DNA of 64,000 nt from Kiloniellales bacterium (GTDB lineage: Bacteria > Pseudomonadota > Alphaproteobacteria > Kiloniellales > JAKSDN01): contig JAWWCG010000001.1 in the NCBI GenBank assembly GCA_033720555.1, positions 3,357-67,356 on the forward strand. The letters run 5' to 3'. Every line of letters begins with the position of its first letter. Within the stretch, counting starts at the first letter, position 1. The notes below the pieces were generated by a model. The model searched no databases and was not told the origin of the DNA. It was given only the letters and a program-made list of their open reading frames with translations. Both the position numbers and the translations under genes were made by a program. Positions 7,016 to 63,792 of this stretch are shown in pieces.

Positions 7016-7020
7016 TGTGA

Positions 7021-30807: not shown

Positions 30808-30816
30808 AGCGGAATC

Positions 30817-31039: not shown

Positions 31040-31074
31040 GGAGGGGAGGCCCGGCGCGGGCCAGGAGGGGCAGG

Positions 31075-38683: not shown

Positions 38684-38977
38684 TCATTTCCTTCTTCGCG
38701 AGATAATCAGGGCCGCGGCGAGCCCTGCACCTCCGAGAAGGATAAGCGTTTTGTTGCGCTCAAAGAAAGACGGCTCCGCCGGCGGAGTTGCGTAGCCTGG
38801 AGAGGGCGCAGCTGAACCACCGGCGTCAAAGAACCTCGACAGCTGGCCCCCGATCCAGGACCAGGTGTTACCGCCGGCGGCCTTGGCCGGCGCCGGCGGC
38901 GGCGGCTTGGCGCCAATGCTCGCGGGCAGCGTCGGCGCAGGGGCGAGGTTGAGTTGCCCAAGGTGGTGGTAGCTCAT
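38684..38977 (-). CDS. C-tail-anchored Pro/Ala-rich protein
   Basis: MSYHHLGQ... The C-terminus LILLGGAGLAAALIIS + RRRK. Confidence 0.55.
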   Translation of the reverse strand: MSYHHLGQLNLAPAPTLPASIGAKPPPPAPAKAAGGNTWSWIGGQLSRFFDAGGSAAPSPGYATPPAEPSFFERNKTLILLGGAGLAAALIISRRRK

Positions 38978-39216
38978 TTGTTCTTCCGGGTGAACAAGTA
39001 GACGGCGGCAAGCGCCCCTCCTCCGAAAAGAAGGGTTTTGCCGTGCTTATCCATGAAGCTCGGCTCTCGGTACGCCGGCATGGGCGCCAGTGGCTGCGCC
39101 GCCGCGGCGCCCTGTTGCGCGGCCTGTTGGCGCACGCCCGTGAGAATAGACGAAAAGGCGTTCTTGCCCTTTGTCCAGATCGCGTCCCAGTCAACGCCTT
39201 GCGGAATATAGGCCAT
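38974..39216 (-). CDS. C-tail-anchored protein
   Basis: MAYIPQGVDW... The C-terminus LLFGGGALAAVYLFT + RKNK. 4-nt overlap downstream. Confidence 0.55.
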   Translation of the reverse strand: MAYIPQGVDWDAIWTKGKNAFSSILTGVRQQAAQQGAAAAQPLAPMPAYREPSFMDKHGKTLLFGGGALAAVYLFTRKNK

Positions 39217-39845
39217 TACTTCTTCCTCCGAGTGAACATGTAAACAGCCGCGAGGCCGGCGCCCGCGATGATGGCAATCTTTCCCATGCTAAGCCCAGCC
39301 GCCGGGCGCGGCGCGGCGTATGGCCTAATGCGAAGTGCGCCCTCCCCTTTCCCGGGGAGCGGCTCCAGTGAGACGCCTGTCGTGCGGGTTCCCGTCGAAC
39401 CTGCGCCTCCTTTTGTGCCCGTCGGCGGAGGCGCCATTGCGTCGACCGGAGGCTTCTTGAGCAAAGGGATAATGTCGCTGATGGCCATTCCGGACTTCAG
39501 CATATCGACGCATTGCGTTATGCGTTCCTCGGGGATTCCGGCGTACTTGCATTGCGCGCGAAACTGCTCCAGTTCCAGAGCCGATCCAGAGCCTGGGGTC
39601 GCTAGGACCGTTGTTTGCGTCCGCGGAGACACGGTTTGGGTCTGCGTGGTCGTGGCCACCGCAGTAGACGGCATGGCCGTGATGGGGGCCGTCATAGCCG
39701 GAGGGCGAATTGGGTCCGGCGGAGGCGGCGTAGGATCCCTCGCCGGGTCTACCGATAGCAGCGACCGTCCCCCGGGAAGCTCGGCGGGGGAGCGCACGAG
39801 CTGGCGCGCGGCGCCCAGTGCAATGCGATAGCTCATTCGACTCAT
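39216..39845 (-). CDS. C-tail-anchored Pro/Thr-rich protein
   Basis: ATG 39845 (alternative 39836 gives MSYRIALG). The C-terminus IAIIAGAGLAAVYMFT + RRKK. Confidence 0.5.
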   Translation of the reverse strand: MSRMSYRIALGAARQLVRSPAELPGGRSLLSVDPARDPTPPPPDPIRPPAMTAPITAMPSTAVATTTQTQTVSPRTQTTVLATPGSGSALELEQFRAQCKYAGIPEERITQCVDMLKSGMAISDIIPLLKKPPVDAMAPPPTGTKGGAGSTGTRTTGVSLEPLPGKGEGALRIRPYAAPRPAAGLSMGKIAIIAGAGLAAVYMFTRRKK

Positions 39846-39849
39846 TGGT

Positions 39850-40179
39850 TCACTTTTCTCGGCCGAAGAGATAGCCCAGGGCAAAGGAGCCCAGGACAGC
39901 GCCTCCGACGGCGGCTGGGAGCAGCCAGCGATGCTCTTTACTTTTGGCAGCCCAGCGTAGAGGCGTAATGACCTCGCGAAGGCCCAGCCCCCGGCGTGGT
40001 TGGTTGGGCGGCGTCCGTCGGCAAGGTGGCCCGGGGGGGCGACCCTCCTCCAGCGCAGAGATGCGCATGGTGAGGCATGTGACCTCGGGAAGGTACGGAT
40101 CGTCCAGGAGTTTGGCGCCGACGGCCAAGATGCCGCCGGCGCGCTCCATGGTGCTTTGACCTAACGGTAGATAGGTCAC
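39850..40179 (-). CDS. C-tail-anchored protein
   Basis: MTYLPLGQ... The C-terminus WLLPAAVGGAVLGSFALGYLFG + REK. Confidence 0.55.
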   Translation of the reverse strand: MTYLPLGQSTMERAGGILAVGAKLLDDPYLPEVTCLTMRISALEEGRPPGPPCRRTPPNQPRRGLGLREVITPLRWAAKSKEHRWLLPAAVGGAVLGSFALGYLFGREK

Positions 40180-40324
40180 GTCGGCCTCCCAGTCGACCCG
40201 TCATCCGGGCCAATGCGCAACGGGGCTCCGACAGTCCGATGCGCGAAGGTCCAAGACTCCCCCGAGCCACCTGGTACCTCCGTCAGACGACGGGTGACGA
40301 GCCGATTGGGAGGCCGACGCATCT

Positions 40325-40945
40325 TCATTTTCGGCCTCGCGTCGAAACTTCGTGTCGCACTCGCGCACCAATTCCGGCCTTCTCCCAGAGAAACCAGCCC
40401 ACGAGCACGGCGCCGAGAACTTTCATGGGGCCCCAGCGGCCTGCTCCGGCGGCCTCTGCCTTGATTCTCTCAAGCTCGGCCTCTTTTTCAGCCGCCGTGC
40501 GGATCTTGACGACGTACGCCAAAAACGCCAAAGAGCCGCCGACGACGACCAAGAGCGGAACAAGCGGCAAGATTCCTTGAGCCTGCGGGCCGGACACTTC
40601 CCCGAGAGCCCGCTTCGCGAGCTTTGCCGCCGCGTATGGGTCCTGGAGTGACGGGAGATTGGTGTCGCCTGCCTCCGTAAGTAGCCGATGAATTTTTGCC
40701 GCGAGCTGTGCCTCGGACGCCATGTCGCGCCGAGGCATCAGGCCGCCGGGTTTAAGCGTTCGTTTGCCTGTCCGAAATTCCTCGTTGATGGTCCAAAACT
40801 TTAACCATCGACGAAGACCTTTTTTCATGCTGGAAAGTTCAGCGCTCGGGTCGGCATCCGGGGTAGACCCCATGGACTCGACAAGGTGGCCGGCCGGCCC
40901 GATGTAGAGCCGAGCGCCCGGCATGGTCATGTAGGGGCCTGCCAC
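40325..40945 (-). CDS. membrane protein with two C-terminal-half TM helices
   Basis: 206 aa. ILPLVPLLVVVGGSLAFLAYVV and VLGAVLVGWFLW separated by a helical EKEAELERIKAE region. Confidence 0.55.
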   Translation of the reverse strand: MAGPYMTMPGARLYIGPAGHLVESMGSTPDADPSAELSSMKKGLRRWLKFWTINEEFRTGKRTLKPGGLMPRRDMASEAQLAAKIHRLLTEAGDTNLPSLQDPYAAAKLAKRALGEVSGPQAQGILPLVPLLVVVGGSLAFLAYVVKIRTAAEKEAELERIKAEAAGAGRWGPMKVLGAVLVGWFLWEKAGIGARVRHEVSTRGRK

Positions 40946-40954
40946 GATGTCTCC

Positions 40955-41614
40955 TTACATGTTGACAATACGGTAGCCGGGAAGCGCAACCGCCAGGGTG
41001 CCTTCCGTTGGAGGCGTCGCTGCGTTGTTGAAAAGGATGCGTTCGTACGTTGGAAAAAACTGCGCGGTCGCGTTCGGGACCAGAAGCGTCGGTACCGAAA
41101 GGGGGATGAGCTGGTCGGGGCGCGAAAGAAACGCCGGCGTCGGCAGGTTCTGAAAATTGCGTTGACTGCCCGCATCGACCATTTCCCAGCTGATAGCGAC
41201 CAGATCCGTATTGAAGTCCTGGCCTGCCGCAGAGGCTTGCAAAGGAAGCGGCCAGCCGGCAGCGACCGGGCGCCACAGGCCGAACGCCGTGGCCGTGTCG
41301 GGCGCGCTGGGCCGCCAGACGGCCATTGGATAGTGCGTCATGACGAACGGCCCGTCCTGGCTTACGAGGAAGTTGATGGGTTGACCCCGGCGCCCATCGT
41401 CAGAGATATCGAACGTGATAGTTCCGTTGAGGTTGTAAAAAATTCGCCGCCCGGGAATTTTATCGATTTCCTCCGTGATCGACGGGACGCGGTCCGCCAT
41501 CTTCGCGACGATATCCGTCTGCGCTTTAAGGGCGGTGATCTGCTGGGTAAGCGTGTTGACGCGCTGAGAGACTTTCGTAAGGCTCTCGCGTACGTATGAG
41601 GCAAAGTCAGCCAT
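40955..41614 (-). CDS. structural protein: N-terminal coiled coil + beta-rich (jelly-roll-like?) domain
   Basis: ATG 41614. LTKVSQRVNTLTQQITALKAQTDIV, then alternating beta-type sequence (FLVSQDGPFVMTHYPMAVW...AISWEMVDAGSQRNFQN...GYRIVNM). Confidence 0.55.
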   Translation of the reverse strand: MADFASYVRESLTKVSQRVNTLTQQITALKAQTDIVAKMADRVPSITEEIDKIPGRRIFYNLNGTITFDISDDGRRGQPINFLVSQDGPFVMTHYPMAVWRPSAPDTATAFGLWRPVAAGWPLPLQASAAGQDFNTDLVAISWEMVDAGSQRNFQNLPTPAFLSRPDQLIPLSVPTLLVPNATAQFFPTYERILFNNAATPPTEGTLAVALPGYRIVNM

Positions 41615-41785
41615 TCTGATTCCCTGTCTTCGGACCAAGGGTATGGGGCCTGCGCCCCCTCGGCGTCGCGGGTCCGATCCGCGTGGCCGGAAGCGAAGAA
41701 GGGAAGGATCAGAACGCTATGCGTTTTTCGATTGCAGTTCGGCGTGGAGGTGCGCGAACTAGCTCAAGCCTACAAGGGCGACCAC

Positions 41786-42715
41786 TTACAGCGCAATCCA
41801 GTTCGTCATGCCGTCGGTTACGAAAAGGTTTGCACCGCTCGCCGCGATGGCAAACGGCCCGGCGATGAGGTCGATGGTGTCACCGCCGGTCGGCGTTACC
41901 GTGAGGGCTGCGCCGGGAATGATTTCCTTGATCCAGGCACCTGTGCCTGCCGGCAATGACGCCGCCAAGGGAAGCGGCTGCGCAATGGCGCCACCGCTTG
42001 TGTCGAAAAGAAGAATGGCGTTTGGAATCACCGCCGCCGCGGGAAGAGGAGCTGCGGACGGTGGAGCGCCCGGCGGAGGATCTTGCAAAAGAATGTTGGG
42101 CTGTACCAGTGCCGCAATGTTTTCGGCGCCAACCCAGACGACAGGAGTACCCGAGCCGCCCCCCGCAGATGTGTTGTTTCTTGTGACTCGCAAGAATGGA
42201 TACGCCTCATCGGCCTGGCTTTGGCAATCCGGCGACTGAAAGGAAAGCGACGTCGGAACAAAATTGACGTCATCGAGCGAGCCCTCAATGGTCAGCGTGC
42301 CCGCATAGTCGCTGTCGCCCGTCGCCTGCACGACAAACGTTCGAATAGCTCCCGCAGTGGATAAATCGACGCTTGCGCCGGAGCCGTCGCCGGCGGTCAC
42401 GGGTAGCATCGTGAATGAATTCGCAAGGGTTGCATCAATCCCGCCAACGTCTATGGTTGCGCCCGAGGCGTCGCCGTTTGTAACCGTGACGCGCATTTCA
42501 TCGGCCACGGCGCCAATTTGCTTCGTTCCTGGCGACGTGAACGTAACGACCGGACAGAAGGAGCTTCCCCCAGCGGATACCTCAATGTTCACCGATGCGC
42601 CGGTGAGCGTGCCGCTGACGGCGATAACCTTTGAAAACCCAATGTTGGCCGTGCTGGCAGCGGCTCCGGAGCCGACGCCGGCCGGCGCAGGTAGATTTGC
42701 GGTAAGAATGGGCAT
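41786..42715 (-). CDS. Fibre paralog 3 (duplicated N-terminal module + short C-terminal domain)
   Basis: 309 aa. LPAPAGVGSGAA...SFCPVVTF...MRVTVTNG, then LPVTAGDGSGAS...FLRVTRNN. Confidence 0.7.
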   Translation of the reverse strand: MPILTANLPAPAGVGSGAAASTANIGFSKVIAVSGTLTGASVNIEVSAGGSSFCPVVTFTSPGTKQIGAVADEMRVTVTNGDASGATIDVGGIDATLANSFTMLPVTAGDGSGASVDLSTAGAIRTFVVQATGDSDYAGTLTIEGSLDDVNFVPTSLSFQSPDCQSQADEAYPFLRVTRNNTSAGGGSGTPVVWVGAENIAALVQPNILLQDPPPGAPPSAAPLPAAAVIPNAILLFDTSGGAIAQPLPLAASLPAGTGAWIKEIIPGAALTVTPTGGDTIDLIAGPFAIAASGANLFVTDGMTNWIAL

Positions 42716-42727
42716 GGTCGTCGTCTC

Positions 42728-43552
42728 CTAGTTGGCTTTGATGAGCGTGATGCGGCGATTGTAAATGTTGACCGTACCGGTTCCGGATGCGCGCCGGAAA
42801 ATGGCGCGAATCCCGTCGCCTGTCGTAAGGCCGGAGAAGAGATGCGTCGTCGTCGAATTGCGCCGGGAGGAGCCTTGCGTTTGCCTTGCAGTTCCTGCCA
42901 CCGCTGTGGTGGTGGAGTTTAGGCCAAGGGCGATTTCGCCAACCGTGTTGTTGGTGGTGTTGTCCGTATCGGTCTCAAAAATGGCAAGGTAGTCTCCGTC
43001 CTCCGAAGGATTGAGGGCGCTACCAAACGCTGCCGCAAACGTTGCCGATGTTGTCCCGGATGAGCTAGTCGAGTTCTGACTGGCAGCGGCGTTGGATGTT
43101 GCGCTCGCGGGTATTCCGTCAAGTTTACTTTTGTCCGCGGCCGACATGAAGCCGGAGACGCCGGCTGTCGCCGCCGTGTGAAGTGTTCCCCCGCCTCGGC
43201 TTCCGTGAGCATGTACGTGGTCGGATCGAGGAAAGCTGTTGGCAGAGCCCGCGCTATTTGTGGTGTCGGAGATCGCTATGGGTGCTCCCAGGGAGAGCGG
43301 ATCGCTTCCGGAGGGGGCGTGTCGGCTGCCGTGAGTGTCAAGGTCGACCTGCGGGTTGCTTAGGTCGAGGACGAACCCAACGGACTCCATAAATTGGTCA
43401 AGAGTGTCAACGGCTCCTGACACGGCGTCGTCGATTTGCAGGACAACGCCCTCGGTGAACGTGGAGACGCCTGACGCAGTGGGAGACACTTCTATCTGAA
43501 GGCGCTGGTTGGATACGCCAGCGCGACGGTATATGCGTTGAACAATCGCCAT
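42728..43552 (-). CDS. Tail-fibre-like protein
   Basis: HGSRHAPSGSDPL ... FPRSDHVHAHG ... AGVSGFMSAADKSKLDGI are motifs common in phage tail-fibre proteins. Ser/Thr-rich linker. Confidence 0.7.
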   Translation of the reverse strand: MAIVQRIYRRAGVSNQRLQIEVSPTASGVSTFTEGVVLQIDDAVSGAVDTLDQFMESVGFVLDLSNPQVDLDTHGSRHAPSGSDPLSLGAPIAISDTTNSAGSANSFPRSDHVHAHGSRGGGTLHTAATAGVSGFMSAADKSKLDGIPASATSNAAASQNSTSSSGTTSATFAAAFGSALNPSEDGDYLAIFETDTDNTTNNTVGEIALGLNSTTTAVAGTARQTQGSSRRNSTTTHLFSGLTTGDGIRAIFRRASGTGTVNIYNRRITLIKAN

Positions 43553-45411
43553 CAGATAAACTCCACGGTAACCTGAACGTCAATGGAGCCATTGCCGATG
43601 GTAAGCGCCTTGGTTGCAACCATGGAGATGCTGTCGCCGGCAGCAACATCGACAGCGTTGACGAGATCAGACGCTTGCCCAGGCGCGCCTGTCGCCAGGC
43701 TAGCCGTCAGGGCCGACGGAGCGCCATTTACGTGAAGCGTGTAAACGACGCTATTTCCATTGCCGACGCTGTCATTGGTTAAGACGCGCAAGTTGATGAT
43801 TGTTCCGGCGCGCGGAACTGACTGCGTAAAAATGGGGCTTGTTGACGCAGTGGTCGTGGAGCGGCCGGGCGTAAGGTAGCGCGTGTCTGCCGCGGCGCCG
43901 ACAGAGTTGTTGCCCCATGTGATGGAGGAGCCGGCGCCGATGAAAACCCGTGTAGCCGCACCACCGAGGCTTCCTCCGAGGGAGAGGTAGTTGGAATTAG
44001 TGACCGAGTCGAGAATGAATGACTGGGCTGGGCCCGTAAAGGTTCCCGCAAACGAGCAAAAGTTAAAACCTCGGGGCGGCGGAGCGCTCGGAGCGGCGGA
44101 TACTGTAAAGCCTCCTAGGACATTGCATGCCTGCCAGAACTCATACGTTTGCAATGTGATCAATCCTAGGAAAGATGCGCCTTCTGCGCTCGTCACAATC
44201 GCTCGCGGATAGTTGAAATCGCCGGCGAATTGCCCGTTGATAATGAGGATTTCGCACGCGGCAGTCGCTTCATCGCCGGTGCCATCGACATCACCGCGAA
44301 CCTGCACCAGCTGTAGACCGAGGATCTTGTCGCCTCCGACTCCATTGTTTACGATGTTGATGTCGCCCGTGATAATCCATCCAATGGACTCTTGGTTGGG
44401 GTCATCGACCACGGGAGCCGCGGATAGCGTGGAGCCAATCAGAAGCGCTGGATTGGCGCCTCCGAATTGCTGTGCAGGATCTACAGTCCAGGTAATGCTT
44501 CGCGGAGTCGCGGCTGTTCCAAGCTGGACAAAGCCCGGGGAGATGAGGCCAATGCGCCGGGATGGAGGGATCGTCAGGTCCTCTTCGTAAAGCCCGGGCG
44601 CACATAGGATGGCGGCTCGCTGAGCTTCATCGGCTGCATTGGTGGGCGGGGGGACAGCGTTGATGGCCCCCTGAAGCGTGGCAAACGGAGTGGACAGGTC
44701 TCCGTTGTCGATGGCGTCGGGATGTCCAGGTATTGCGTATGCGGATATGCCAGACGGAATTGTGCCGCCGGGGATCGTTGTGTTGATAAGAGGCAGAATA
44801 CCGTTCGTGGCAGGAGCTGGCGTTGCCGCACTGATGGCGTCGTTGACGGCTCCAAGGTGAACTGCCGGCGTCCCTCCTACTCCAGCTTTGACGTTGGCCC
44901 GAGTGACGCGCGCGAAACGCGCAGCGGCGGGACTGGACTTGCACCCTGAGGACGTAAACGTGAAAAACGTGTTTGAAAACACGATGCCATCCGGCGACAG
45001 CTCGACGCTTACCTGGCCGCTAAAGGTGCCGCTGACGATGACCGTCGAAAAAGTCCCAAGTGCGGATATATCAGTGACGGCGCCAGTGCCGTTGCCGGCT
45101 GGGACATCTAGCGTAACTGCCTGCGCGCCGATGTCGTCGGCTGCCACTTCGATGGAGGCGCTGCTGGATGTGCCCTGGAGTACTGTCCGCATTTCTTCCG
45201 AGGCGAAAGAAAGGATGCGGGGGCCGTCGCCGGGGACGAACGTCGCGATTTGGCAAAAGTCGCTTCCGCCGTTGGCTATCTCGACGGTGATCGTGCCAGT
45301 GAAAGACCCACCGACAGCAATGGTCTTGTCGCGCCCGAGGGCGCCAGTTGCGACGGCCAGGCCAGTTCCTGAGCCCGTCGGTACGGGTAAAGCGACGCCC
45401 AGCGTGGCCAA
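43552..45411 (-). CDS. Tailspike/fibre paralog 2 (full-length paralog of 1230..3107)
   Basis: TTG start with AGGAGG 5 nt upstream. N-terminal duplicated module, central TPFATLQGAINA...LYEEDLTIPP and C-terminal VYTLHVNG...DVQVTVEFI all parallel 1230..3107. Confidence 0.75.
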   Translation of the reverse strand: MATLGVALPVPTGSGTGLAVATGALGRDKTIAVGGSFTGTITVEIANGGSDFCQIATFVPGDGPRILSFASEEMRTVLQGTSSSASIEVAADDIGAQAVTLDVPAGNGTGAVTDISALGTFSTVIVSGTFSGQVSVELSPDGIVFSNTFFTFTSSGCKSSPAAARFARVTRANVKAGVGGTPAVHLGAVNDAISAATPAPATNGILPLINTTIPGGTIPSGISAYAIPGHPDAIDNGDLSTPFATLQGAINAVPPPTNAADEAQRAAILCAPGLYEEDLTIPPSRRIGLISPGFVQLGTAATPRSITWTVDPAQQFGGANPALLIGSTLSAAPVVDDPNQESIGWIITGDINIVNNGVGGDKILGLQLVQVRGDVDGTGDEATAACEILIINGQFAGDFNYPRAIVTSAEGASFLGLITLQTYEFWQACNVLGGFTVSAAPSAPPPRGFNFCSFAGTFTGPAQSFILDSVTNSNYLSLGGSLGGAATRVFIGAGSSITWGNNSVGAAADTRYLTPGRSTTTASTSPIFTQSVPRAGTIINLRVLTNDSVGNGNSVVYTLHVNGAPSALTASLATGAPGQASDLVNAVDVAAGDSISMVATKALTIGNGSIDVQVTVEFI

Positions 45412-45464
45412 CCAGTCCTCCTAACGCAAGTAAAACTTTTCAACAGCACGGCGGGCAAGTGTGG

Positions 45465-45500
45465 AACAAACGGCCCGAACGGAGCGCCGGGCCGTTTGTT
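45465..45500 (-). terminator. 13-bp perfect hairpin after the 194-aa structural gene (no U-tract)
   Basis: AACAAACGGCCCG / CGGGCCGTTTGTT with a 10-nt loop, 17 nt downstream of the stop at 45517. Confidence 0.4.
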
Positions 45501-45516
45501 GCCAACGGAAAGTTAG

Positions 45517-46101
45517 CTACTGCACATCACGTGTTTGTAGGCCGTCCAGCATCAGGAGGATGACCTTCTGATCATCAGTTGCGCCGCCGTTGATAAGAGT
45601 CAGCGCGTCGGTGGTCCCAACCGAGAACCATTCCATGTTAGCGTTAAAATTTTGCCGGACCGGGACCACAATCGGTCGCGCCAATTTCATGATGGCATCA
45701 GCTGAGGGCCAGCCGTGATTGTAGATCGGCGTTGCGGCAGCGGCACCGCCGTCTCCAAACACGCCGCCGCCGGCAGGCAGGTACCAGCTGGGGCACTGAA
45801 ACTGCGGCTTGTCGCCAAGGTTAAGCGTTACGTACAGCTGAGACACGGTCTGCTGATACAGCTCGCGGATGTTCGTGCCATCAAAATACAGCCAGAGGCG
45901 AAGCGACAGGATCACATAAGTTTGATCCGAGGCCAGTTGGCCCGCCACTTGAAGATTGGTGAGCGCCAAGTTCCCCACATTGGCGTTCCCGAAAAGTCGA
46001 GTCGATGGGGTGATGGGAGTCGCCGGCGTTCCAGTGGTCCGAATCAGGCTATCCCAAAACGGTTGATGGCGACGTTCTCGAATACCATGAAGACGAGGCA
46101 T
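45517..46101 (-). CDS. abundant-looking beta-rich structural protein (capsid candidate)
   Basis: 194 aa. Strong SD (GAGGAAGG) after a structured 195-nt leader, and a hairpin after the stop. Beta-strand-like sequence (TYVILSLRLWLYF, LYVTLNL, VILLMLDG). Confidence 0.55.
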   Translation of the reverse strand: MPRLHGIRERRHQPFWDSLIRTTGTPATPITPSTRLFGNANVGNLALTNLQVAGQLASDQTYVILSLRLWLYFDGTNIRELYQQTVSQLYVTLNLGDKPQFQCPSWYLPAGGGVFGDGGAAAATPIYNHGWPSADAIMKLARPIVVPVRQNFNANMEWFSVGTTDALTLINGGATDDQKVILLMLDGLQTRDVQ

Positions 46102-46296
46102 GAGCGGTTCCTTCCTCTGTTATTCTTTCCGCCCGGAACTTTGAACAACGCGAAACTTTCCGGTAAAGCAGGCGGAAAGAAAGAACGTGCAAAGCCGAAC
46201 GTGGTCGGGTGTCTCCCCGCCAAAGAAGTTGAAGGGCATTCGCCGGAATTGGCGAATGACCTAGGAGGAAGGGATGAGGAAACGGTAGTGGTTACG

Positions 46297-47778
46297 CTAG
46301 CAGCCGAAGCCGCCGCGGAAGATTCCAGTATAGAGGCTCGACATCTTGTCAAACCGTGAGGGCTGCGCCGACGGCACGGCCTTCACGAAGCTTTTGGCCG
46401 GAACGGCCGCAACCATGGAGCGACGCGGCACACGGCCGACGAGCGCGTTCCAAGGGGTGCCGATGCCGCTGCCGATCTGCGACGCAGGGCCTTGCTTAGG
46501 CATTGGCAGCGCGTTGGGGGCGGTCGCGGACGGCAGCGGGGCCACGTCGTCGGCGCCCAGCTCGGCCTCGAAGGCGCCCAGCTCGACGTACTCGCTGAGA
46601 TCGTCGTGGTACAGCTCGCCCAGCTCCTCTTCGGCGCCAAGCTGGACGTACTCGCCAAGCTCCGCCTCGTACTGGCCCATCTCCACGTACTCGGACAATC
46701 CCTGGTCGTAAATGTCGCCAGTCGACCAGAAGCCGCCAGTGGGTGCCGCCGAGTCACCATTTTTGACGGCGTCCTTGGCTGCATCGTCGACGCTCGCGCC
46801 CAGGTACTTCTTGTATTGCTCGGGCATGAGCGAGCGGAGCGACGTGTCGAGCAAATTGACGCCAAGGCCCATCAGGATGTGCTGGCGATTTTGCTGAACC
46901 ATCGGCGCCTTGATCCGCGCAGTGATGAACGCACCGGCGGCCAGGACGGCGCCAGCAAGCACGGGCTTGCTAAATTTGCCAAGCCGGGCAAGCTGCGCCT
47001 CGAATTGTTTGTCGAGCGCCGTGACGGCAGCCTTGGCCGCGTACATGGAGCCCGCGACGGGAATCGCCATCTTTACAGAGTCAATGAGCGCACCGCGCGG
47101 ATTGGACCGCATACGATACCGCTTCATGAAGTTGCGAGCGGCAGCGTTGCCGTAGCCCTTCTGGTAGATGATGCTACGACGCGCCTTCCACAGTCCGCGG
47201 ATGCCCCGGGCCGGCGACCCGCCTCGGGAGCCGGGCCCTTTCGAAGCGCGACGACGGATGGCCTTCCACTTCGTGCGATGGCGGCGCTGCGTTTTCGTGA
47301 GCTTCGGCTTGTCGCTTGGGTTGCGGCGATAACGCCGGCGGCGACGCGGAGCGGCTGCGACCGCACGACGACGGCGCCGGGTCGGGTTCTTGCGTGCCGC
47401 GGTGCGCCGGCGGCGACGCGGAGCGGCTGCGACCGCACGACGACGGCGCCGGGTCGGGTTCTTGCGTGCCGCGGTGCGCCGGCGAGCCGGCCGACGACGT
47501 TTGGCCGCGGCTGTCGTGCGGCGGCGGCGCTTCCGTGCGGGGTTCTTGCGCGTTTTTCGGCGCCGGAGCTTCGCGAGGCGCTTTGCATGCGCCTTTGCCG
47601 CCGCTCCATAGAGCTTCTTTGCCATCGTTCCCTTTCCTTTCGGATTTTTGCGCCGGGTAGCCCGGCGAGCCGGTTTCTGCCGCAACGTACGAGCGCGCCG
47701 AACGGGGCGCTTGATGGCGCGCTTGGGATTGTGCTTGGCGGTTCGCCGTGACGACGGATTCACAAAAAATAGGGGCAT
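46297..47778 (-). CDS. Arginine-rich (protamine-like) N-terminus + hydrophobic core + acidic repeat protein
   Basis: 493 aa. The first ~190 aa are mostly R/K/A with recurrent RKNP, then FSKPVLAGAVLAAGAFITARI, then LSEYVEMGQYEAELGEYVQLGAEEELGELY...LSEYVELGAFEAELG repeats. Confidence 0.65.
   Translation of the reverse strand: MPLFFVNPSSRRTAKHNPKRAIKRPVRRARTLRQKPARRATRRKNPKGKGTMAKKLYGAAAKAHAKRLAKLRRRKTRKNPARKRRRRTTAAAKRRRPARRRTAARKNPTRRRRRAVAAAPRRRRRTAARKNPTRRRRRAVAAAPRRRRRYRRNPSDKPKLTKTQRRHRTKWKAIRRRASKGPGSRGGSPARGIRGLWKARRSIIYQKGYGNAAARNFMKRYRMRSNPRGALIDSVKMAIPVAGSMYAAKAAVTALDKQFEAQLARLGKFSKPVLAGAVLAAGAFITARIKAPMVQQNRQHILMGLGVNLLDTSLRSLMPEQYKKYLGASVDDAAKDAVKNGDSAAPTGGFWSTGDIYDQGLSEYVEMGQYEAELGEYVQLGAEEELGELYHDDLSEYVELGAFEAELGADDVAPLPSATAPNALPMPKQGPASQIGSGIGTPWNALVGRVPRRSMVAAVPAKSFVKAVPSAQPSRFDKMSSLYTGIFRGGFGC
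47333..47476. repeat. Perfect 72-bp tandem duplication (2 full copies + partial third) inside the Arg-rich gene
   Basis: CGCCGGCGGCGACGCGGAGCGGCTGCGACCGCACGACGACGGCGCCGGGTCGGGTTCTTGCGTGCCGCGGTG at 47333-47404 and again at 47405-47476. Encodes TAARKNPTRRRRRAVAAAPRRRRR twice. Confidence 0.9.
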
Positions 47779-47921
47779 GACGCTCCTAGGAAACGCGGCC
47801 AGAGGTCGGAGTAGCCACGGGAAGTTTGTTTATGCTCGCAAGATTGCTCACGACAGACAAGAAGAACTCTTTGCAAGGGCCACTGCTGGAGTCTGGCGCC
47901 GGGAAAAAATCCATCGGTGCA

Positions 47922-48209
47922 TCATTTGACCGCCTCCAAGATGGCGTCGAGTTTCACGTCTTGTTCGGCCTGTTCCTCGGTGAGGCGCTCCTGGAGGGCG
48001 CGTTGCGCCGTCAATTCGGCACGGATCTCGGAGACCCGCTCGGCAAGGTCTCGGTGTCCGGCTTCATTGTGATGCTTCAGCTGCTCGTCGATGGAGGCTT
48101 GGGTGGGGCGGCCAGTGATGGCGCCGGAAAGTGCCCAGATCGCCCCTCCGACGGTCACTAGGACGCCGAACACGATCGAAAGCAGTTTGCCGATAGGGAG
48201 TTGCACCAC
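47922..48209 (-). CDS. N-terminally anchored coiled-coil protein
   Basis: GTG 48209 with AGGAGG 9 nt upstream, overlapping the upstream stop. LLSIVFGVLVTVGGAIWAL followed by a long helix. Confidence 0.45.
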   Translation of the reverse strand: MVQLPIGKLLSIVFGVLVTVGGAIWALSGAITGRPTQASIDEQLKHHNEAGHRDLAERVSEIRAELTAQRALQERLTEEQAEQDVKLDAILEAVK

Positions 48210-48222
48210 GGTCTCATGCCTC

Positions 48223-48753
48223 CTAGTCGACAATGCCTCGGGCCTCGATGCGCATCTTGCCGCCCCAGAGCATGCCCAGAAGCTTGCGCTTGCCATGGAT
48301 GACTAGAAGGCATCGGCCCGAGGGTACGCAGTAAAGCTCGGGGTACGGGCGCTTGGTGTGAGACTCGATCTTGTCGTCGCCCTCTAAATATGTGAACCCC
48401 AGGCATTTGCCGAGAAGAGTCAGCGTCTTGGCAGACCGGAACGTCCTCGGGACTGCCTTGATGCGCCCTTCCCCGCCCTCGATGGGCTTGTAGGCTCGTA
48501 CGCCATTGGAGAACTCGTGGATGTAGTTGTGCGTGCCATCGTTCCACTTGTCGCTGCGATAAAGGACATTGACGGCTGGGCCAAGCGGAACCACTGCCTC
48601 TGGGATCTGGAGGGAGCGATGAAACACGCCGATCTCGCGAGCGTCGCGGTCCTGGAAGACGCCATAGCGATGAATTGCGCGCCCCATGTCGCGGGGGTAG
48701 CCTTCGCTCGCCTTGCGCGTTGGTGCGCGACTGGTGGCTCGATTCTTTCGCAT
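48223..48753 (-). CDS. hypothetical structural-operon protein
   Basis: Internal ATG (48753) forms a TGATG overlap with the upstream stop, with GGAGGA upstream. 176 aa. Confidence 0.55.
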   Translation of the reverse strand: MRKNRATSRAPTRKASEGYPRDMGRAIHRYGVFQDRDAREIGVFHRSLQIPEAVVPLGPAVNVLYRSDKWNDGTHNYIHEFSNGVRAYKPIEGGEGRIKAVPRTFRSAKTLTLLGKCLGFTYLEGDDKIESHTKRPYPELYCVPSGRCLLVIHGKRKLLGMLWGGKMRIEARGIVD

Positions 48754-49274
48754 CAGGTCCTCCGCTTGGCCCACTCCTGATAGACGATATAGGCAAACGT
48801 CGCGTAGACGCCCCATTTGATGAGGTTGGTGGTCAACTCAAGCCCGCGGCCTGCTCCACGGGCGAGAGTCTCTGCCTTGTCTGCAAGTTCCGACGCGCTT
48901 TCCGAGACCGACTCCCAGGCAAGCGTTAGGCCACTCGGAGGCGGGTAATTAGCAGAGCTGCGCTCGATAGCAAATTTCGCACCCTTAGACCAGAAATCCT
49001 CATTGGCGGGATATTCAAAGGACCCCATGCGCCCCAGGAGCCCAGCGCCGGGAAGAGTCGCCGCCCATGCTCTGGCGGCGTCCTGAAGCGGTGCGCCCCA
49101 GTTGATGTTTGGGTCGTACGTCTTCTGGATAAAGCTCGAATAGAAGTCATAGACATCGCGATACGTCGACCGCGGTATCAAGGAGCTGCTGTTTACGCCA
49201 GGGCGATAGCCGCGTTTTAGGCGCAGCTCCCTCTTCTTGGCCATGAAGTATGTGACGGGATCAACGGAAGGCAT
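48753..49274 (-). CDS. C-tail-anchored protein
   Basis: ATG 49274 forms a TAATG overlap. The C-terminus LIKWGVYATFAYIVYQEW + AKRRT. Confidence 0.55.
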   Translation of the reverse strand: MPSVDPVTYFMAKKRELRLKRGYRPGVNSSSLIPRSTYRDVYDFYSSFIQKTYDPNINWGAPLQDAARAWAATLPGAGLLGRMGSFEYPANEDFWSKGAKFAIERSSANYPPPSGLTLAWESVSESASELADKAETLARGAGRGLELTTNLIKWGVYATFAYIVYQEWAKRRT

Positions 49275-49591
49275 TAGCGCTTCTTCCTTAGGTAGATATA
49301 TGCGGCAGCCGCGCCAACCAGGAGCCATGGCGCCGGAATGCCCGCAATGCTCGCGCCTAGCCCAGAAAGCGCCGTGCCACCGCGGCTTGCGATGAGGCCA
49401 GCCGCCCGCGGCCCCGAGCCGATGTACTTTGCGCCCGAGGGAAGTCGTCGAGCCGCACTGTCGGGGCTGAGGCCAAGGCGATGGCTGTGGCCATAATTTG
49501 GGTGAGGGGCAAACACGCCATCGCGAAGCGAGCCAGGGGCTACATAGTGGTCGTATTGCTTCTTCTGGTAATCCCAGACCGAATAGCGCAT
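49274..49591 (-). CDS. C-tail-anchored protein
   Basis: 105 aa. The C-terminus APWLLVGAAAAYIYL + RKKR. Confidence 0.55.
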   Translation of the reverse strand: MRYSVWDYQKKQYDHYVAPGSLRDGVFAPHPNYGHSHRLGLSPDSAARRLPSGAKYIGSGPRAAGLIASRGGTALSGLGASIAGIPAPWLLVGAAAAYIYLRKKR

Positions 49592-49594
49592 CGC

Positions 49595-49972
49595 TTACTT
49601 CTTTCGCAGAAGAAGCCAGCCGACTACGGCGGCGGCGCCGGCAAGGGCAAGGTTCCGACCGGAAAGTTCGAAGCCGTCGACGTGCCGAAGGCCATGGGTG
49701 TGCAACCAATACGGTGAGCCTTCCTTTCGCACCTCAAAGAACGGAAGACGTTGCTCGCGCTTGTGGAGGTAGTATGGGCTGTCCTTGTCAGGGACACGGA
49801 AGAACTGCGAAAGGTTGGTCACGTCGCCCATCGTGACCGGCGTTCCTTCGTCAAGTTCCATGACGTCCGCCAGCGCGCGATGTTCGGCCGACCAGGAGCG
49901 GCCTTCTGGCAGACCTTTCCATCGCCCCTGGTATTCTGGCTGCTGAAAGCCAAAGCGATATCCGAGGGGCAT
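49595..49972 (-). CDS. C-tail-anchored protein
   Basis: 125 aa. The C-terminus LALAGAAAVVGWLLL + RKK. TAATG overlap at 49972. Confidence 0.55.
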   Translation of the reverse strand: MPLGYRFGFQQPEYQGRWKGLPEGRSWSAEHRALADVMELDEGTPVTMGDVTNLSQFFRVPDKDSPYYLHKREQRLPFFEVRKEGSPYWLHTHGLRHVDGFELSGRNLALAGAAAVVGWLLLRKK

Positions 49973-50895
49973 TAGCGGCGTCCTTTCTTCTTGGCCGGTT
50001 TTTTCGTTTGCGTCATCGCCAGAAGGATTCCGCCTCCAATGGCCGCCAAACCAATCGGCGACATCGCAAACTCCATGAGGCCGCCTTTTGGCTTGAGGTC
50101 GGGCGGGTGAATGACTTGCCCTGACGGGCTGGCAATTGAAGGAGGCTGCTCTGGCGGAGGCGACGGAGGTCGCGCAGGGGCGCGACGCTGGTCAGCGTAG
50201 TCTTTGAACTCGGCGAGAAGGACGTCTGCGACCGAAGCGACGCCATCCTCGGTCCCAAAGGGAACGATAGACATGCCGAGTGCGTCCTGGGCCTTCTGCA
50301 CGCTGTCAATGGTGTCGGGTCCAATGCGTCCATCAATGCCCACGGCCTTCGCTGCCCCGACAGCCGCCATGCGATTGAGCTGCGTTTGAAGACCCTTGAA
50401 CACGGCGAGCGTCTGAGCATCCATTGGAATTGCGATGCCAGCCAGGACGCGGCAATTGGGCTTTGGGTGCCGTTTGGAGCACCAGGAGGTCGTGCTTAGG
50501 TTGCCCATCGCCAAGCGGCCTCCTTTGATTTCTCGCAAAGCGCCCAGGCCCTCGTCGAAGGGATTCACGGGCGCTCGCTTGGTGGGTGACGCATTGAGAA
50601 CGTCCTCAACGATGTTGACCCAGGGACGACTCTTCCACTGCGGCCCGGCGACGATGCGCAGAGCGCGCATGGTCGCGTCGTCGACAAAGCCGTCGCGGCG
50701 GGTGAAGTACCCAAGCCGCGACAAGTAGCTCTGAATTCCTTCGACGAGCATAATGATGTTTGGCGCATAGGGGTCCACCGTCGATGGCGTAAACCATACA
50801 AAGGGAATGATCATTGTCGCATTGACGCGATCAATGCCGAGGTCCATGAGGATGTCGACGACATCGTTTTGCCCTTGAGGCCGTGGCTCGCGCAT
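49972..50895 (-). CDS. C-tail-anchored protein with two peptidoglycan-binding-like (PG_binding_1-like) repeats
   Basis: IQSYLSRLGYFTRRDGFVDDATMRALRIVAG and LNRMAAVGAAKAVGIDGRIGPDTIDSVQKAQ. The C-terminus IGLAAIGGGILLAM + KKPAKKKGRR. Confidence 0.55.
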   Translation of the reverse strand: MREPRPQGQNDVVDILMDLGIDRVNATMIIPFVWFTPSTVDPYAPNIIMLVEGIQSYLSRLGYFTRRDGFVDDATMRALRIVAGPQWKSRPWVNIVEDVLNASPTKRAPVNPFDEGLGALREIKGGRLAMGNLSTTSWCSKRHPKPNCRVLAGIAIPMDAQTLAVFKGLQTQLNRMAAVGAAKAVGIDGRIGPDTIDSVQKAQDALGMSIVPFGTEDGVASVADVLLAEFKDYADQRRAPARPPSPPPEQPPSIASPSGQVIHPPDLKPKGGLMEFAMSPIGLAAIGGGILLAMTQTKKPAKKKGRR

Positions 50896-51936
50896 TTATT
50901 TCCTCGTGAGAATGAATGCCAGGGCGACGGCGCCGCCGGCGATGGCGATGGGGACGATGGGAAGGCCACCGGCGGGTTGCGCGACGGGCATTTGCGGAGG
51001 CGGTGGCGGGTCACTGGCGCAGAGTGCGGCGCCAATCTGAGCGCCTGCCATCCCCGCTTGAGGCGGGGCGCCCAGCGCCCCGGCCCCAGCTCCAACGGCG
51101 ACTTGCCCGGTGGGATGTGATGCGACGCGACAGGCGGCGTTGGCAATCTTGGATAGCGCCTTTTTGCCGAAATCGTAGGCGGCCGATGCGCCCGAGCGAA
51201 CGGCGCTTCCGATTCTCTTGGCGCCGCTGTAGATGCCCTTGCCGGTCGCCGTTACTGCCCGGGCCGGGGCCGTCACGACGCTCTTGACTCTCGACCAGAA
51301 ACCTTCAAGCACCGCCTGCTCTGCCTCGGCGCCATAGCAGCCAAGGCCCATGAGAGATTTGAGCTGAGGCGACTTTCCGCTTCTTCCGGCCTTCACGAAA
51401 TCCTCGACGAGGCCCTGGCTCATGGCCGAGGCAATGCCCCCGCGCAGCGCCGCGGCGGCAGTGGCCCCCTGCATGCGGAGCTGGTTGGCCTTTTGCGATA
51501 CGCGCACCCATAGCTTGGGGTCCACTTCGTCAAAAAGGGCCTTCATGGCGGCCTTGCGCTCTGATTGCGGAACCTGCTGGATTGCCTTCATGATGTAGGA
51601 CGCCACGGTTTTTCCAAAATCACCGACGGGGTCAGACGCGGGCCCAAGGCCGCCCTCGTCGTCACCTAGGTAATCGAGAACGCCGGTGTCGATCGTGCGT
51701 CGCGGCATATATTTGGTCCGGCGCGCGTTCACGCGCTCAGTGGCAGGGCCTTCGAGAAGGACGTGGTCGGGGTATGCAAAGCCCGGTCGCCAGGCTTTTG
51801 TGATCTCGCGCGGTACGAGCGTGTCGACCGTTCGGCGCGGCATATACTTGGTGCGGTGGGCGCCTCGCCCTGGCGCTTCGACGCTCACCCAGCTGGGAAG
51901 CGCGAAGCCGGGATTCCATGGCGGTGGGATCTTCAT
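50896..51936 (-). CDS. C-tail-anchored protein with internal W-PGFA-P...RTKYMPRRT-DT repeat
   Basis: ATG 51936 with AGGAG upstream. Two ~42-aa repeats. The C-terminus LPIVPIAIAGGAVALAFIL + TRK. Confidence 0.55.
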   Translation of the reverse strand: MKIPPPWNPGFALPSWVSVEAPGRGAHRTKYMPRRTVDTLVPREITKAWRPGFAYPDHVLLEGPATERVNARRTKYMPRRTIDTGVLDYLGDDEGGLGPASDPVGDFGKTVASYIMKAIQQVPQSERKAAMKALFDEVDPKLWVRVSQKANQLRMQGATAAAALRGGIASAMSQGLVEDFVKAGRSGKSPQLKSLMGLGCYGAEAEQAVLEGFWSRVKSVVTAPARAVTATGKGIYSGAKRIGSAVRSGASAAYDFGKKALSKIANAACRVASHPTGQVAVGAGAGALGAPPQAGMAGAQIGAALCASDPPPPPQMPVAQPAGGLPIVPIAIAGGAVALAFILTRK

Positions 51937-51946
51937 AGGTCGACTC

Positions 51947-52423
51947 CTAGGCGACAGGCCAGAAGCGCTCGGCGACGACCCGACCGTGCATCTCATCGGT
52001 GCGCCCGCCGGCTACGGGGTCAAGGGTAATCCAGCGTCCGGAGCGGGGCTCGCGGGCCTGGGCAAAGACATGGCTGTATTGGCGTTGCCCGCGATAGAAC
52101 ATATCGCGGAAGGCGACCGTCACAATGCGGCACTGGCCGCCGACGGCTAAGATGAGGGCGCAGATGAGCGCCGCCATGTCGTCGCAGTCAAGGCTTGGAA
52201 TCTTTCCGGCGGCAAGTTCCTTTGCGACCAGGCTAGGGCTGCGGACAAGCTCAACCGTGCGAGGGTCGCGGGAATAGCGCGTGCGCGAAAGGACGTAGTA
52301 GTAGATGGCAAGGTACTCAGAGAGAAAGTCCTTGCTGGGGAGGCCGCCGACGATGTCCTCGGCGAGAGAGCGGACGGCGTAGTCGTTCTGAGACGTCAGC
52401 GCCGCCCGCCGAATCACCGCCAC
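51947..52423 (-). CDS. Transglutaminase-like cysteine protease-fold protein
   Basis: SLDCDDMAALICALILAVGGQCRIV ... YSHVFAQA ... RWITLDPV. Cys/His/Asp order and spacing are as in the transglutaminase-core superfamily. Confidence 0.55.
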   Translation of the reverse strand: MAVIRRAALTSQNDYAVRSLAEDIVGGLPSKDFLSEYLAIYYYVLSRTRYSRDPRTVELVRSPSLVAKELAAGKIPSLDCDDMAALICALILAVGGQCRIVTVAFRDMFYRGQRQYSHVFAQAREPRSGRWITLDPVAGGRTDEMHGRVVAERFWPVA

Positions 52424-59841: not shown

Positions 59842-60387
59842 ATGGCAAATGAGCGAGGAAAGTGCGCCGGCCTAGTCGAGGAGCAAGCGCGCGACCGGAT
59901 TGAAGATATACGGCTTCTATTGGTACCGACGAAAGAGGACGTCGAGCTTGTCGATCGCGGCACGATGGATACGTGTATTCGTCTTGGCGATATCGAGGAA
60001 GTGTATTCGCAGGAACACGCCGCGGACTATCGAGACGAAGACGGCACGCTCGACTTGGAGTCGTTCGTCGACGATCACTGGGACGAGCTTGCCGAGCGTG
60101 CCCGCGAGCGTTGGTACGAGTTTGGGCTTGGCTTTGATTATGTCGATCGCGAGGATACCGAGCATTTCTGGCGATACCAGATCTCGTGGGGGGGTCCGAG
60201 CGAAGAAATTCGCTTTTTCGCAAACCATGATCTCACGCTCTATCGCGCGGAATTCTGGTACATGGATTGGTTCGACGGCGCCCATGTCGTGGTCACAGAC
60301 GACGACACCGTGCGGGCCATCTGGGACGAGTTTGTCGAAACGGAAACCGCTGCGCATGCGCGAGACAAGGTATTGAACGATGGCTAA
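59842..60387 (+). CDS. acidic early protein (WGGP motif)
   Basis: 181 aa. FWRYQISWGGPSEEIRFF...FWYMDWFDGA. Confidence 0.55.
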   Translation: MANERGKCAGLVEEQARDRIEDIRLLLVPTKEDVELVDRGTMDTCIRLGDIEEVYSQEHAADYRDEDGTLDLESFVDDHWDELAERARERWYEFGLGFDYVDREDTEHFWRYQISWGGPSEEIRFFANHDLTLYRAEFWYMDWFDGAHVVVTDDDTVRAIWDEFVETETAAHARDKVLNDG

Positions 60388-61226: not shown

Positions 61227-61343
61227 CGGAAAGAAGGGCTAGATAACCGGCCTCGACTGGAGCCCGCAAGCAATGATAACCTGCGGGCTGTCGCCGGCGC
61301 CGTTTAAGCCGGTTTGGGTAAACCTACTGAGAAGGAGCGAGCT

Positions 61344-63777: not shown

Positions 63778-63792
63778 AGAAAGGATAGCGCG

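Follow-up and report, generated by a model that had tools for sequence, protein, structure and literature searches.

Condensation of the genome by proteins is known among eukaryotic viruses, from adenovirus, baculovirus, and ascovirus, and also from a few viruses of archaea. In SPV1 (Portogloboviridae), a circular double-stranded DNA (dsDNA) genome is condensed by a basic protein, and this core is enclosed by a membrane and by a shell of the single-jelly-roll kind (PMC8459092). The ascovirus virion protein P64, of 64 kDa and with an isoelectric point of 12.2, condenses the genome through its basic domain (PMC6163548), and the core-protein tail in hepatitis B virus (HBV) has been described as protamine-like (PMC9121876). 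The prevailing view of large dsDNA viruses of bacteria is that an ATP-driven motor packages their DNA naked, and the tailed phages that package by motor lack arginine-rich arms (PMC7096446). Here, we describe a 493-amino-acid (aa) protein, hereafter the target, encoded in a 64,000-nucleotide stretch of contig JAWWCG010000001.1 (the window; assembly GCA_033720555.1, filed as a Kiloniellales bacterium). The target joins a long, arginine-rich, predicted disordered N-terminal region to conserved helical, acidic, and tail domains; its gene stands directly upstream of a likely capsid gene, and it may be a virion core protein that binds and condenses DNA. Its parts were located as follows.

46297..47778, (-) strand: target open reading frame (ORF), 493 aa, from the ORF list, with ATG at 47778 (MPLFFVNP...) and a family of 255 clusters.
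47098..47778, (-) strand: polycationic, Asn-Pro-punctuated region, aa 1-227, predicted to be mostly disordered (charge, composition, AlphaFold2 [AF2]).
47623..47645, (-) strand: conserved internal Met52 (MAKKLYGAAAKAHAKRL), a probable internal start, with a purine-rich, Shine-Dalgarno-like element (GAAAGGAAAGGGA) of rare GGA codons.
47333..47484, no strand assigned: 72-bp unit duplicated perfectly in tandem (2.1 copies), so that TAARKNPTRRRRRAVAAAPRRRRR is encoded twice (Tandem Repeats Finder and direct identity check).
46759..47100, (-) strand: conserved helical, moderately hydrophobic domain, aa 227-340, starting at N226-P227 and including KPVLAGAVLAAGAFITARI (AF2).
46534..46758, (-) strand: acidic region of short E/Y/L/G repeats, aa 341-415, net charge -20 (LSEYVEMG, GEYVQLG, EEELG).
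46300..46533, (-) strand: C-terminal tail with the motif VPxRSFxKxVPxxxxxFDxxxxLYTGIFxGGFG, a candidate docking segment.

The first 227 residues carried a net charge of +93 (67 Arg, 27 Lys, 1 Asp, and no Glu), with Arg and Lys making up 41% of the region. A preliminary description of this locus had set out a three-part product, and each of its listed items was present in the sequence, although its account of some 190 residues made almost only of R, K, A, T, and P proved a mild overstatement: these five accounted for 76% of the first 190 aa (59 Arg, 24 Lys, 32 Ala). In an AF2 model built from the family alignment, the basic and acidic parts were predicted to be disordered, most of aa 1-227 having a predicted local distance difference test (pLDDT) score below 50, whereas residues 230-320 formed a bundle of long helices (H227-258, H260-288, and H298-317) at pLDDT 80-92; further helices were at residues 59-77, of modest confidence, and 80-95. 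For this model, Foldseek found no matching fold in the PDB (best E 1.1, with meaningless helical matches). What had been called a hydrophobic core is a conserved helical domain of only moderate hydrophobicity, its Kyte-Doolittle maxima over 19 residues being 1.3 to 1.75 across the family, which is borderline for a transmembrane helix; a true transmembrane reading was rejected on these values. The acidic E/Y/L repeats of the earlier account held up, with SDYVEVG/EEELG repeats kept in the family, and in the tail residues P460, R462, S463, F464, D477, Y483, G485, and F487 were invariant or nearly so, a pattern that suggests a specific protein partner.

The target belongs to a large family. A word-indexed search returned 18 homologues of 317 to 532 aa, many of them on contigs of 70 to 85 kb, and a profile of the nonrepetitive C-terminal 300 aa recovered at least 255 clusters (50% identity) at E<=1e-3, 128 of them at E<=1e-30. 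The conserved domain was always C-terminal and was preceded by a variable basic extension of 100 to 400 aa. From the N terminus, the family alignment read MP[LI]x[FY][VI]NP, the helix-forming MAKKLYGAAAKAHAKRL, Arg blocks that vary, a module LxRARRxI...YxRRYRMRSNP (carried in duplicate by some members), three moderately hydrophobic helices, the acidic SDYVEVG/EEELG repeats, and a tail VPxRSFxKxVPxAGxGYDNxxxLYTGIFxGGFG. No match to the target was found in Pfam (E<=1) or PHROGs, in the PDB by sequence profile, or by tblastn among 50,697 phage records; megablast of the 15-kb region around it against phages returned nothing, and the exact 493-aa product was not on record in other assemblies. When IMG/VR and GTDB were scanned for patterns from the target alignment, nothing was returned; these were false negatives, as a scan with the neighboring jelly-roll gene recovered loci there. 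That neighbor lies immediately downstream of the target gene.

45517..46101, (-) strand: 194-aa protein, predicted to form a jelly-roll and bearing a basic arm at its N terminus (MPRLHGIRERRH), likely the major capsid protein (AF2, Foldseek, conservation).

The 194-aa protein was modeled as a beta-sandwich (pLDDT 71.5, predicted template modeling score 0.69). Its top PDB match in Foldseek was the SPV1 capsid chain 6oj0_A (E 1.3e-3, prob 1.0), with a template modeling (TM) score of only ~0.4, followed by chains of SH1 (6qt9), capsids of picornavirus, circovirus, and nodavirus, and also TNF/C1q and PHM jelly-rolls. It had no sequence-profile match, and its gene was found in none of the cultured phages or plasmids. 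At least 673 homologues of 190 to 195 aa and about 70 to 80% identity were present in metagenomes, and between genomes whose target proteins share 33 to 35% identity this gene was 62 to 70% identical, making it the most conserved gene of the lineage. Because of the modeled beta-sandwich, the SPV1 and SH1 matches, this conservation, and the basic arm, we accept the 194-aa protein, with moderate confidence, as the best capsid candidate.

The pairing of the two genes, noted in the preliminary description for this genome alone, was confirmed and proved to be kept in ~25 genomes. The jelly-roll gene was immediately preceded by a target-family gene in the window, in three related loci (L001-L003), and in the JGI context of P0005; the same pair occurred on 11 IMG/VR contigs of 23 to 86 kb (eight of them 75 to 86 kb) and on 5 contigs from metagenome-assembled genomes (MAGs), four of 68 to 84 kb and one a 5.6-kb fragment. 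The jelly-roll scan gave 19 IMG/VR and 5 GTDB loci in all. Every close-clade locus among these (11 IMG/VR, 5 GTDB) had a clear target homologue, and 2 more distant IMG/VR loci had weak ones. In the distant clade, on contigs of 95 to 179 kb, the jelly-roll gene was 30 to 34% identical and the gene upstream encoded a protein of 596 to 746 aa with the same architecture: a basic region of +113 to +165, then hydrophobic helices, repeats of the GEYF type, and GVFG at the C terminus. Alignment of the target family with this protein by hhalign (prob 78%, E 1.8e-5, over helices 2-3) gave moderate support to homology, and it is probably a distant relative of the target.

The window covers 64 kb of a circular assembly of 69,078 bp, a Logan contig joining positions 60308-64000 to 1-13107. 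The 5,078 bp outside it (L004:3694-8771) encode a ParB-like protein with a histone H1-like Lys/Ala-rich tail, an SLT lytic transglycosylase, and small ORFs. The genome as a whole encodes RecE/RecT-like recombinases, an integrase, Amidase_2, SLT, a glycosyltransferase, HNH nucleases, and the ParB-like protein. Neither Pfam nor PHROGs revealed a terminase, portal, or HK97 capsid protein over the whole window, nor did the Pfam hits of the 5-kb gap or the flanks of relatives, and a scan for GK[ST] P-loop (Walker-A) motifs, the 5 kb outside the window included, hit implausible frames only and no credible ORF. The detectable genes of the genome therefore do not make up a tailed-phage (Caudoviricetes) structural module. 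Judged by these sequences, the target family is carried by an uncultivated group of bacterial viruses of 69 to 180 kb.

The target is explained most economically as a polycationic structural protein that binds DNA, since a disordered domain of charge +93 is locked in synteny with the capsid candidate in ~25 genomes. We put a little short of an even chance on the target being a virion core protein whose disordered N terminus binds and condenses DNA; this part of the preliminary proposal thus survives as the preferred reading, while its other part, a polyprotein cut at Asn-Pro junctions, found no support (see below). The pairing with the capsid candidate, the failure to find a packaging ATPase, the circular assembly, and the membrane-anchored neighbors described below all fit a core protein. 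A wider proposal seems to us possible but doubtful: that the target is the nucleoprotein of a new lineage of large bacterial dsDNA viruses with a jelly-roll capsid, an internal membrane, and a circular genome that is packaged, as in SPV1 and adenovirus, by polycation-driven condensation and coassembly, with no terminase or FtsK-type motor, and with charge tuned by tandem expansion of Arg modules. Several points weigh against a core protein. The lineage has no cultured representative. The jelly-roll call depends on a moderate model and a weak Foldseek match (TM ~0.4), and fibers and decoration proteins also have jelly-rolls. That no terminase or ATPase turned up is a negative from profiles and a motif scan, which a very divergent motor could escape. 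The helices are borderline for membrane insertion (1.3 to 1.75).

Less likely, although it deserves weighing, is that the target helps to build the shell or enters the host with the DNA, its helices lining a membrane conduit and its polycation gripping the genome end. In the gene order established for phages, the slot immediately before the capsid gene is the classic place of a scaffolding gene; most of the protein is disordered or helical, and its conserved tail is docking-like; it has a hydrophobic helical hairpin, and cell-wall enzymes (PG_binding_1, SLT, Amidase_2) occur in the same module or genome. Upstream position and helical or disordered character are as in a scaffold, but so polycationic a make-up is atypical: the scaffolding proteins known so far have an acidic or neutral character and no polycation of about +90, while a charge so large and expandable (+70 to +165) suggests bulk electrostatics over end binding. 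The module also holds an alternative scaffold candidate, the 532-aa coiled-coil protein described below.

That the target is never packaged and instead compacts the host nucleoid, sequesters rRNA, ribosomes, or polyphosphate, or binds viral replication intermediates is improbable. Arg-rich disordered proteins do bind any polyanion, packaging of the target is inferred rather than demonstrated, and the ParB-like protein with its H1-like tail implies that DNA-organizing functions exist outside the structural block. Such an effector would hardly be expected to stay invariably adjacent to and co-oriented with the capsid candidate across ~25 genomes and large divergence, to lie embedded among the fiber-like and membrane-anchored genes of a single long (-) operon, or to keep a C-terminal tail that suggests a specific protein partner. 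A function other than any of the readings weighed in this text has a small share of the probability.

The Asn-Pro dipeptides of the basic region bear on the remaining proposal. In residues 1-227, 8 of the 10 Asn precede Pro (positions 7, 17, 45, 79, 107, 131, 153, and 226), in the contexts FVNP, KHNP, RKNP (four times), RRNP, and RSNP, against an expectation of 0.77 by shuffling (p<=0.0005); the counts and basic contexts given earlier were thus reproduced. The blocks between successive sites measured 10, 28, 34, 28, 24, 22, and 73 aa. Every close homologue showed a ~10-fold enrichment of Asn-Pro in its basic region, in each case as [RK][RK]-N-P-[SAT], and the periodicity, on whose presence in homologues the earlier idea had leaned, was kept in close relatives (145 of 204 basic-region Asn before Pro in 28 homologues) but not in the probable distant ones (5 of 105), where S-P, T-P, or A-P stands before the Arg runs. 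One distant-clade protein (L021) has AASPVRRRRR about eight times, and some Arg runs of that clade are punctuated by HRRN-x. Counting the residue before a Pro that is followed by at least three basic residues gave N 45, A 23, R 6, and S 5 in the 18-homologue search set and S 12, R 6, A 4, T 3, and N 2 in the distant clade. Given this replacement of N-P by S-P, T-P, and A-P, the conserved feature appears to be a small residue, Pro, and a basic run, not Asn itself.

A classic way for a helix to begin is Asn at the N-cap followed by Pro at N1. The sole invariant Asn-Pro, N226-P227, is the exact start of the confident AF2 helix H227-258, and P80 of N79-P80 starts H80-95; the sites otherwise lay mostly in regions of pLDDT below 50, the structured ones being these two. 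These helix starts, the disorder of the other sites, and the S-P, T-P, or A-P of the distant clade argue that, in the models, Asn-Pro serves as structural punctuation (a turn or helix N-cap) and not as a cleavage site.

The preliminary description had proposed a polyprotein cut at each Asn-Pro, by Asn cyclization or a viral protease, into protamine-like peptides of ~20 to 30 aa, comparable to adenovirus pVII/mu or microvirus J, and a C-terminal membrane/acidic fragment, and we consider this quite unlikely. The enrichment and constant basic context in close homologues would fit it, and the conserved RMRSN-P would part the basic half from the helical half neatly. Asn-Pro is also a known site of autoproteolysis, as at N42-P43 of reovirus mu1 and in the NPTH motif of FlhB/EscU. 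It is likewise the autoproteolytic bond of RsgI, which needs a folded site (PMC10328401). The sites of the target are in predicted disorder, where known Asn-Pro autocleavage, dependent on a folded catalytic environment, would not be expected; NPTH is absent from the target, the nearest sequence being NPTR; and cleavage at the first site would free only the 7-residue MPLFFVN. The helix-cap geometry of N226-P227 and N79-P80 and the loss of Asn in the probable distant relatives (5 of 105) speak against cutting at these junctions, and no legumain-like or asparaginyl endopeptidase domain was found among the Pfam and PHROGs matches of the genome. A transglutaminase-like candidate cysteine protease is conserved in the same module.

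51947..52423, (-) strand: 158-aa transglutaminase-like (papain-fold) protein, candidate processing enzyme (Pfam Transglut_core, E 1.5e-8, full-length match).

By inspection, the 158-aa protein has an intact C/H/D triad (Cys80/His118/Asp135), which counts in favor of a polyprotein, and it is 52 to 60% identical in L001-L003. Its gene always follows the 532-aa coiled-coil gene, directly so in 3 of 4 genomes. The product may serve as a protease in maturation, as a cross-linking enzyme, or as a peptidase of the cell wall; processing of the target by it is possible, with no pointer to N|P as its site.

Whatever its function, the reading frame of the target is well founded. The ATG at 47778 is preceded at 4 nucleotides (nt) by the Shine-Dalgarno sequence AGGAG, and homologues keep the N-terminal MP[LI]x[FY][VI]NP; for these reasons, we take this ATG to be the true start and not the internal one from which the NCBI annotation reads a product of 442 aa. 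GC contents at the three codon positions (0.66/0.56/0.77) were typical for genes of the same genome, compared with 0.76/0.56/0.68 for the antisense ORF 46492-47751(+), and a deep, specifically conserved protein family was found for the (-) product only. The antisense ORF, raised earlier as possibly the expressed one, was rejected as a real gene: codon-position GC and conservation favor the (-) frame and mark it as an ordinary high-GC shadow. By GC, Shine-Dalgarno sequence, and conserved family alike, the target is a real gene read in the (-) frame. An artifact, whether of frame or strand (46492-47751) or as a low-complexity nongene in GC-rich DNA, might be suspected from how common long antisense ORFs are in high-GC DNA and from the different NCBI start, but it is effectively refuted by the codon-position GC, the Shine-Dalgarno sequence, the retention of the C-terminal 260 aa in 255 clusters with invariant motifs that are not of low complexity, and the confident AF2 helical domain.

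The internal start used by NCBI may itself be functional. Met52, opening MAKKLYGAAAKAH, is conserved in most homologues and is chosen as the start by some gene callers. In four divergent genomes (the window and L001-L003), rare purine-rich AGR/GGA codons cluster just before the equivalent Met: 2 GGA codons in the window; AGG-AGA-AGG in L001 (10171-10198), which are 3 of that gene's 8 AGR among 109 Arg codons; in L002 (9976-10003), the sole AGG among 81 Arg codons, 4 codons upstream; and AGA plus GGA in L003 (10448-10474). This clustering suggests an internal ribosome-binding site under selection, and Met52 is probably a second translation start giving a shorter isoform of 442 aa.

The basic region also bears the marks of recent change. 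Nucleotides 47333-47404 and 47405-47476 are identical, as previously noted, and we found that the period-72 identity continues to 47484 (100% match). An older 36-bp (12-aa) subperiod lies beneath the 72-bp unit, so that the 72-bp duplication appears to be the youngest layer of the repeat; it is the one exact repeat in the genome. The ENA contig and one Logan contig both stop inside it (window positions 47430 and 47455), as expected of a true graph-breaking repeat. An assembly artifact is unlikely because two assemblers gave the same circular length, 69,078 bp (NCBI contig of 69,219 bp less a 141-bp overlap; ENA contig of 69,133 bp less a 55-bp overlap). Homologous genes carry tandem repeats of their own, with units of 39 to 42 bp in the basic region and 18 to 21 bp in the acidic region, and in some members whole modules are duplicated. 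From these repeats and duplications, we infer that the basic region evolves by expansion and contraction, its net charge ranging from +35 to +165 across the family.

If the target is a DNA-condensing core protein, it might work as follows. The ~230 disordered N-terminal residues (+93 here, +70 to +165 in the family) would grip the phosphate backbone nonspecifically, neutralizing and condensing the ~69-kb genome. Their modules would be Arg/Lys runs, each after a small polar residue and Pro (N-P here, S-P, T-P, or A-P in the probable distant relatives). SPKK and SPRRR motifs are familiar from histone H1, sperm histones, and the C-terminal domain of the HBV core protein, and the same type of pattern, a small polar residue and Pro followed by at least three basic residues in a predicted disordered tail, is present in the target family; Asn-Pro may act as a turn or helix N-cap as those motifs do in histone H1 and the HBV core tail. 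Tandem duplication would expand and contract the modules and so tune total charge, with the 72-bp repeat as the latest event. The helical domain (aa 227-340) could oligomerize or sit on a membrane, and the acidic repeats and conserved tail could tie the nucleoprotein to the shell, the basic arm of the capsid protein possibly pairing with the acidic repeats. Met52 would probably supply the second, shorter isoform.

Around the target and capsid genes, the following features were recognized.

46204..46221, (-) strand: GC-rich hairpin in the spacer between the target and capsid-candidate genes, imperfect in the window copy.
38974..51996, (-) strand: module with at least eight proteins in which a membrane helix is followed by a basic segment (translations, hydropathy).
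50896-51996, 49972-50895, 49595-49972, 49274-49591, 39850-40179, 39216-39884, and 38974-39216, (-) strand: seven of these, each with one C-terminal helix and 2 to 13 mostly basic residues.
40325-40945, (-) strand: 206-aa protein with two helices.
23725-26469, 26473-28446, and 43552-45411, (-) strand: three Gly/Thr/Ala-rich proteins of 914, 657, and 619 aa.
52481-54079, (-) strand: conserved 532-aa protein with 24 homologues and no Pfam match, with an N-terminal EHGGGKYQI domain and an Arg/Glu-rich central coiled coil.

The hairpin, GGC[A/G/T]GG-N5-6-CC[T/C/A]GCC, was found in the spacers compared at 11 related loci (L001, L003, L008-L013, L015, L018, and L024; spacer length, 120 to 195 nt), with its fourth pair covarying (A:T, G:C, T:A) and no U-run after it. 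At several loci a conserved GAACCAAACGTAC box follows it, ~25 nt ahead of the start of the capsid gene. The hairpin may act in RNA processing or stability or may set expression ratios. In L003, a LAGLIDADG homing-endonuclease gene (L003:12297-12788) lies between the jelly-roll gene and a conserved 213-aa gene, an insertion that indicates that the spacing of the capsid block tolerates such events. In the window, the 194-aa and 227-aa genes, elsewhere adjacent or nearly so (in L003 the LAGLIDADG gene separates them), are parted by an insertion of the 619-aa gene and two neighbors. A paralogous relation of the 227-aa protein, the second most conserved neighbor, to the 194-aa protein was rejected (hhalign prob 0.4%), and the 227-aa protein had no PDB match.

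The helices of the eight anchored proteins are rich in Ala, Gly, and Leu, with the basic ends TRK, RKK, RKKR, REK, RRKK, RKNK, and, in a 307-aa protein, QTKKPAKKKGRR; one of the eight has a PG_binding_1 domain. By analogy, the repeated architecture suggests a membrane-containing particle. The 914-, 657-, and 619-aa proteins have in common an N-terminal domain of ~190 aa (MATxGVxLPxPxGNGxGxA...), after which they diverge, with a weak match to a tail-protein PHROG; they look like paralogous fibers or spikes with a common anchoring domain. The 532-aa protein was considered and rejected as a terminase or portal, as it had no Pfam, PHROG, phage-tblastn, or PDB hit and its profile fit coiled coils only, the matches being to helices like those of apolipoprotein A-I or lamin; it may act as a scaffold or ruler. 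Before it lies a 171-aa protein whose tail is poly-Asp/Glu. Elsewhere in the window, a short ORF at 31075-31428(+) contains an SNF2-like AADMGLGKS and lies antisense to a 343-aa ORF (30415-31446(-)) whose translation does not look protein-like; this may be a degraded or frameshifted helicase gene, gene calling being uncertain there.

The virus-sized contigs that had been binned in MAGs (L026-L030 and the window) were assigned to Gemmatimonadota, Thermomicrobiales, Galbitalea, and Deltaproteobacteria, and in the case of the window to Kiloniellales. As these contigs are virus-sized and their taxa disagree, the simplest view is that they are free viral genomes caught up in the bins, and the host assignments for the lineage are probably unreliable through binning contamination. 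The gene pair of polycation and jelly-roll would be a compact marker for finding a lineage that is now binned in MAGs of at least five unrelated bacterial groups. A literature search for phage protamine-like proteins or for this lineage turned up analogues from eukaryotic and archaeal viruses only; polycationic genome condensers are known as a concept in viruses, whereas the family, its multidomain architecture, its N-P/S-P modules, and its occurrence in large bacterial viruses are undescribed in the searchable literature. If the proposed function is true, it would extend nucleoprotein-type packaging to bacterial viruses and would flag a widespread uncultivated lineage with an entirely unannotated structural module (at least 673 capsid-gene homologues; IMG/VR contigs of 75 to 179 kb). 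The family also offers a natural series in which to relate polycation length to genome size, to compare N-P with S-P in DNA binding, and to follow how repeats tune charge.

Compared with known systems, the target resembles each in part. Basic proteins packaged with phage DNA include protein J of Microviridae and IPI-III of T4, neither homologous to the target; J has 20 to 40 aa and belongs to single-stranded DNA phages, and IPI-III, which are of modest basicity and undergo cleavage by the prohead protease, do not condense the genome. RsgI, reovirus mu1, and FlhB/EscU have the same scissile dipeptide as the Asn-Pro of the target, at one conserved site in a folded beta-structure, whereas the target has many disordered polybasic sites and no NPTH. 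With the SPKK/SPRRR motifs it has in common a small polar residue, Pro, and a basic run in a disordered nucleic acid-binding tail, and the probable distant relatives use SPVRRRRR literally, but Asn takes the place of Ser in one clade, which makes Ser phosphoregulation impossible there, and the region is 5 to 10 times longer. Adenovirus, with pVII, pX (mu), and adenain, likewise combines Arg-rich, protamine-like condensers of dsDNA with a capsid of jelly-roll lineage and a papain-like viral protease, to which the transglutaminase-like C/H/D protein would correspond here. The target has the Arg-rich composition of the adenovirus core proteins but no sequence membership among them (Pfam Adeno_VII and Adeno_PX, PDB), and it is one 493-aa multidomain chain, with helical, acidic, and tail domains in place of small peptides, in a bacterial host. 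SPV1 (nucleoprotein VP1, capsid proteins VP4 and VP10) provides the top PDB match of the 194-aa neighbor and is matched by the circular genome assembly and the many membrane-anchored proteins; it differs as a 20-kb archaeal virus, the TM score is ~0.4, the target has no sequence homology to the PDB, and the target is far larger and more highly charged. Ascovirus P64, grouped here with baculovirus P6.9, is an insect virus protein of unrelated sequence with its basic domain at the C terminus, and its condensing activity is shown biochemically where that of the target is proposed, but it is, as a large multidomain polycation, the closest analogue in concept.

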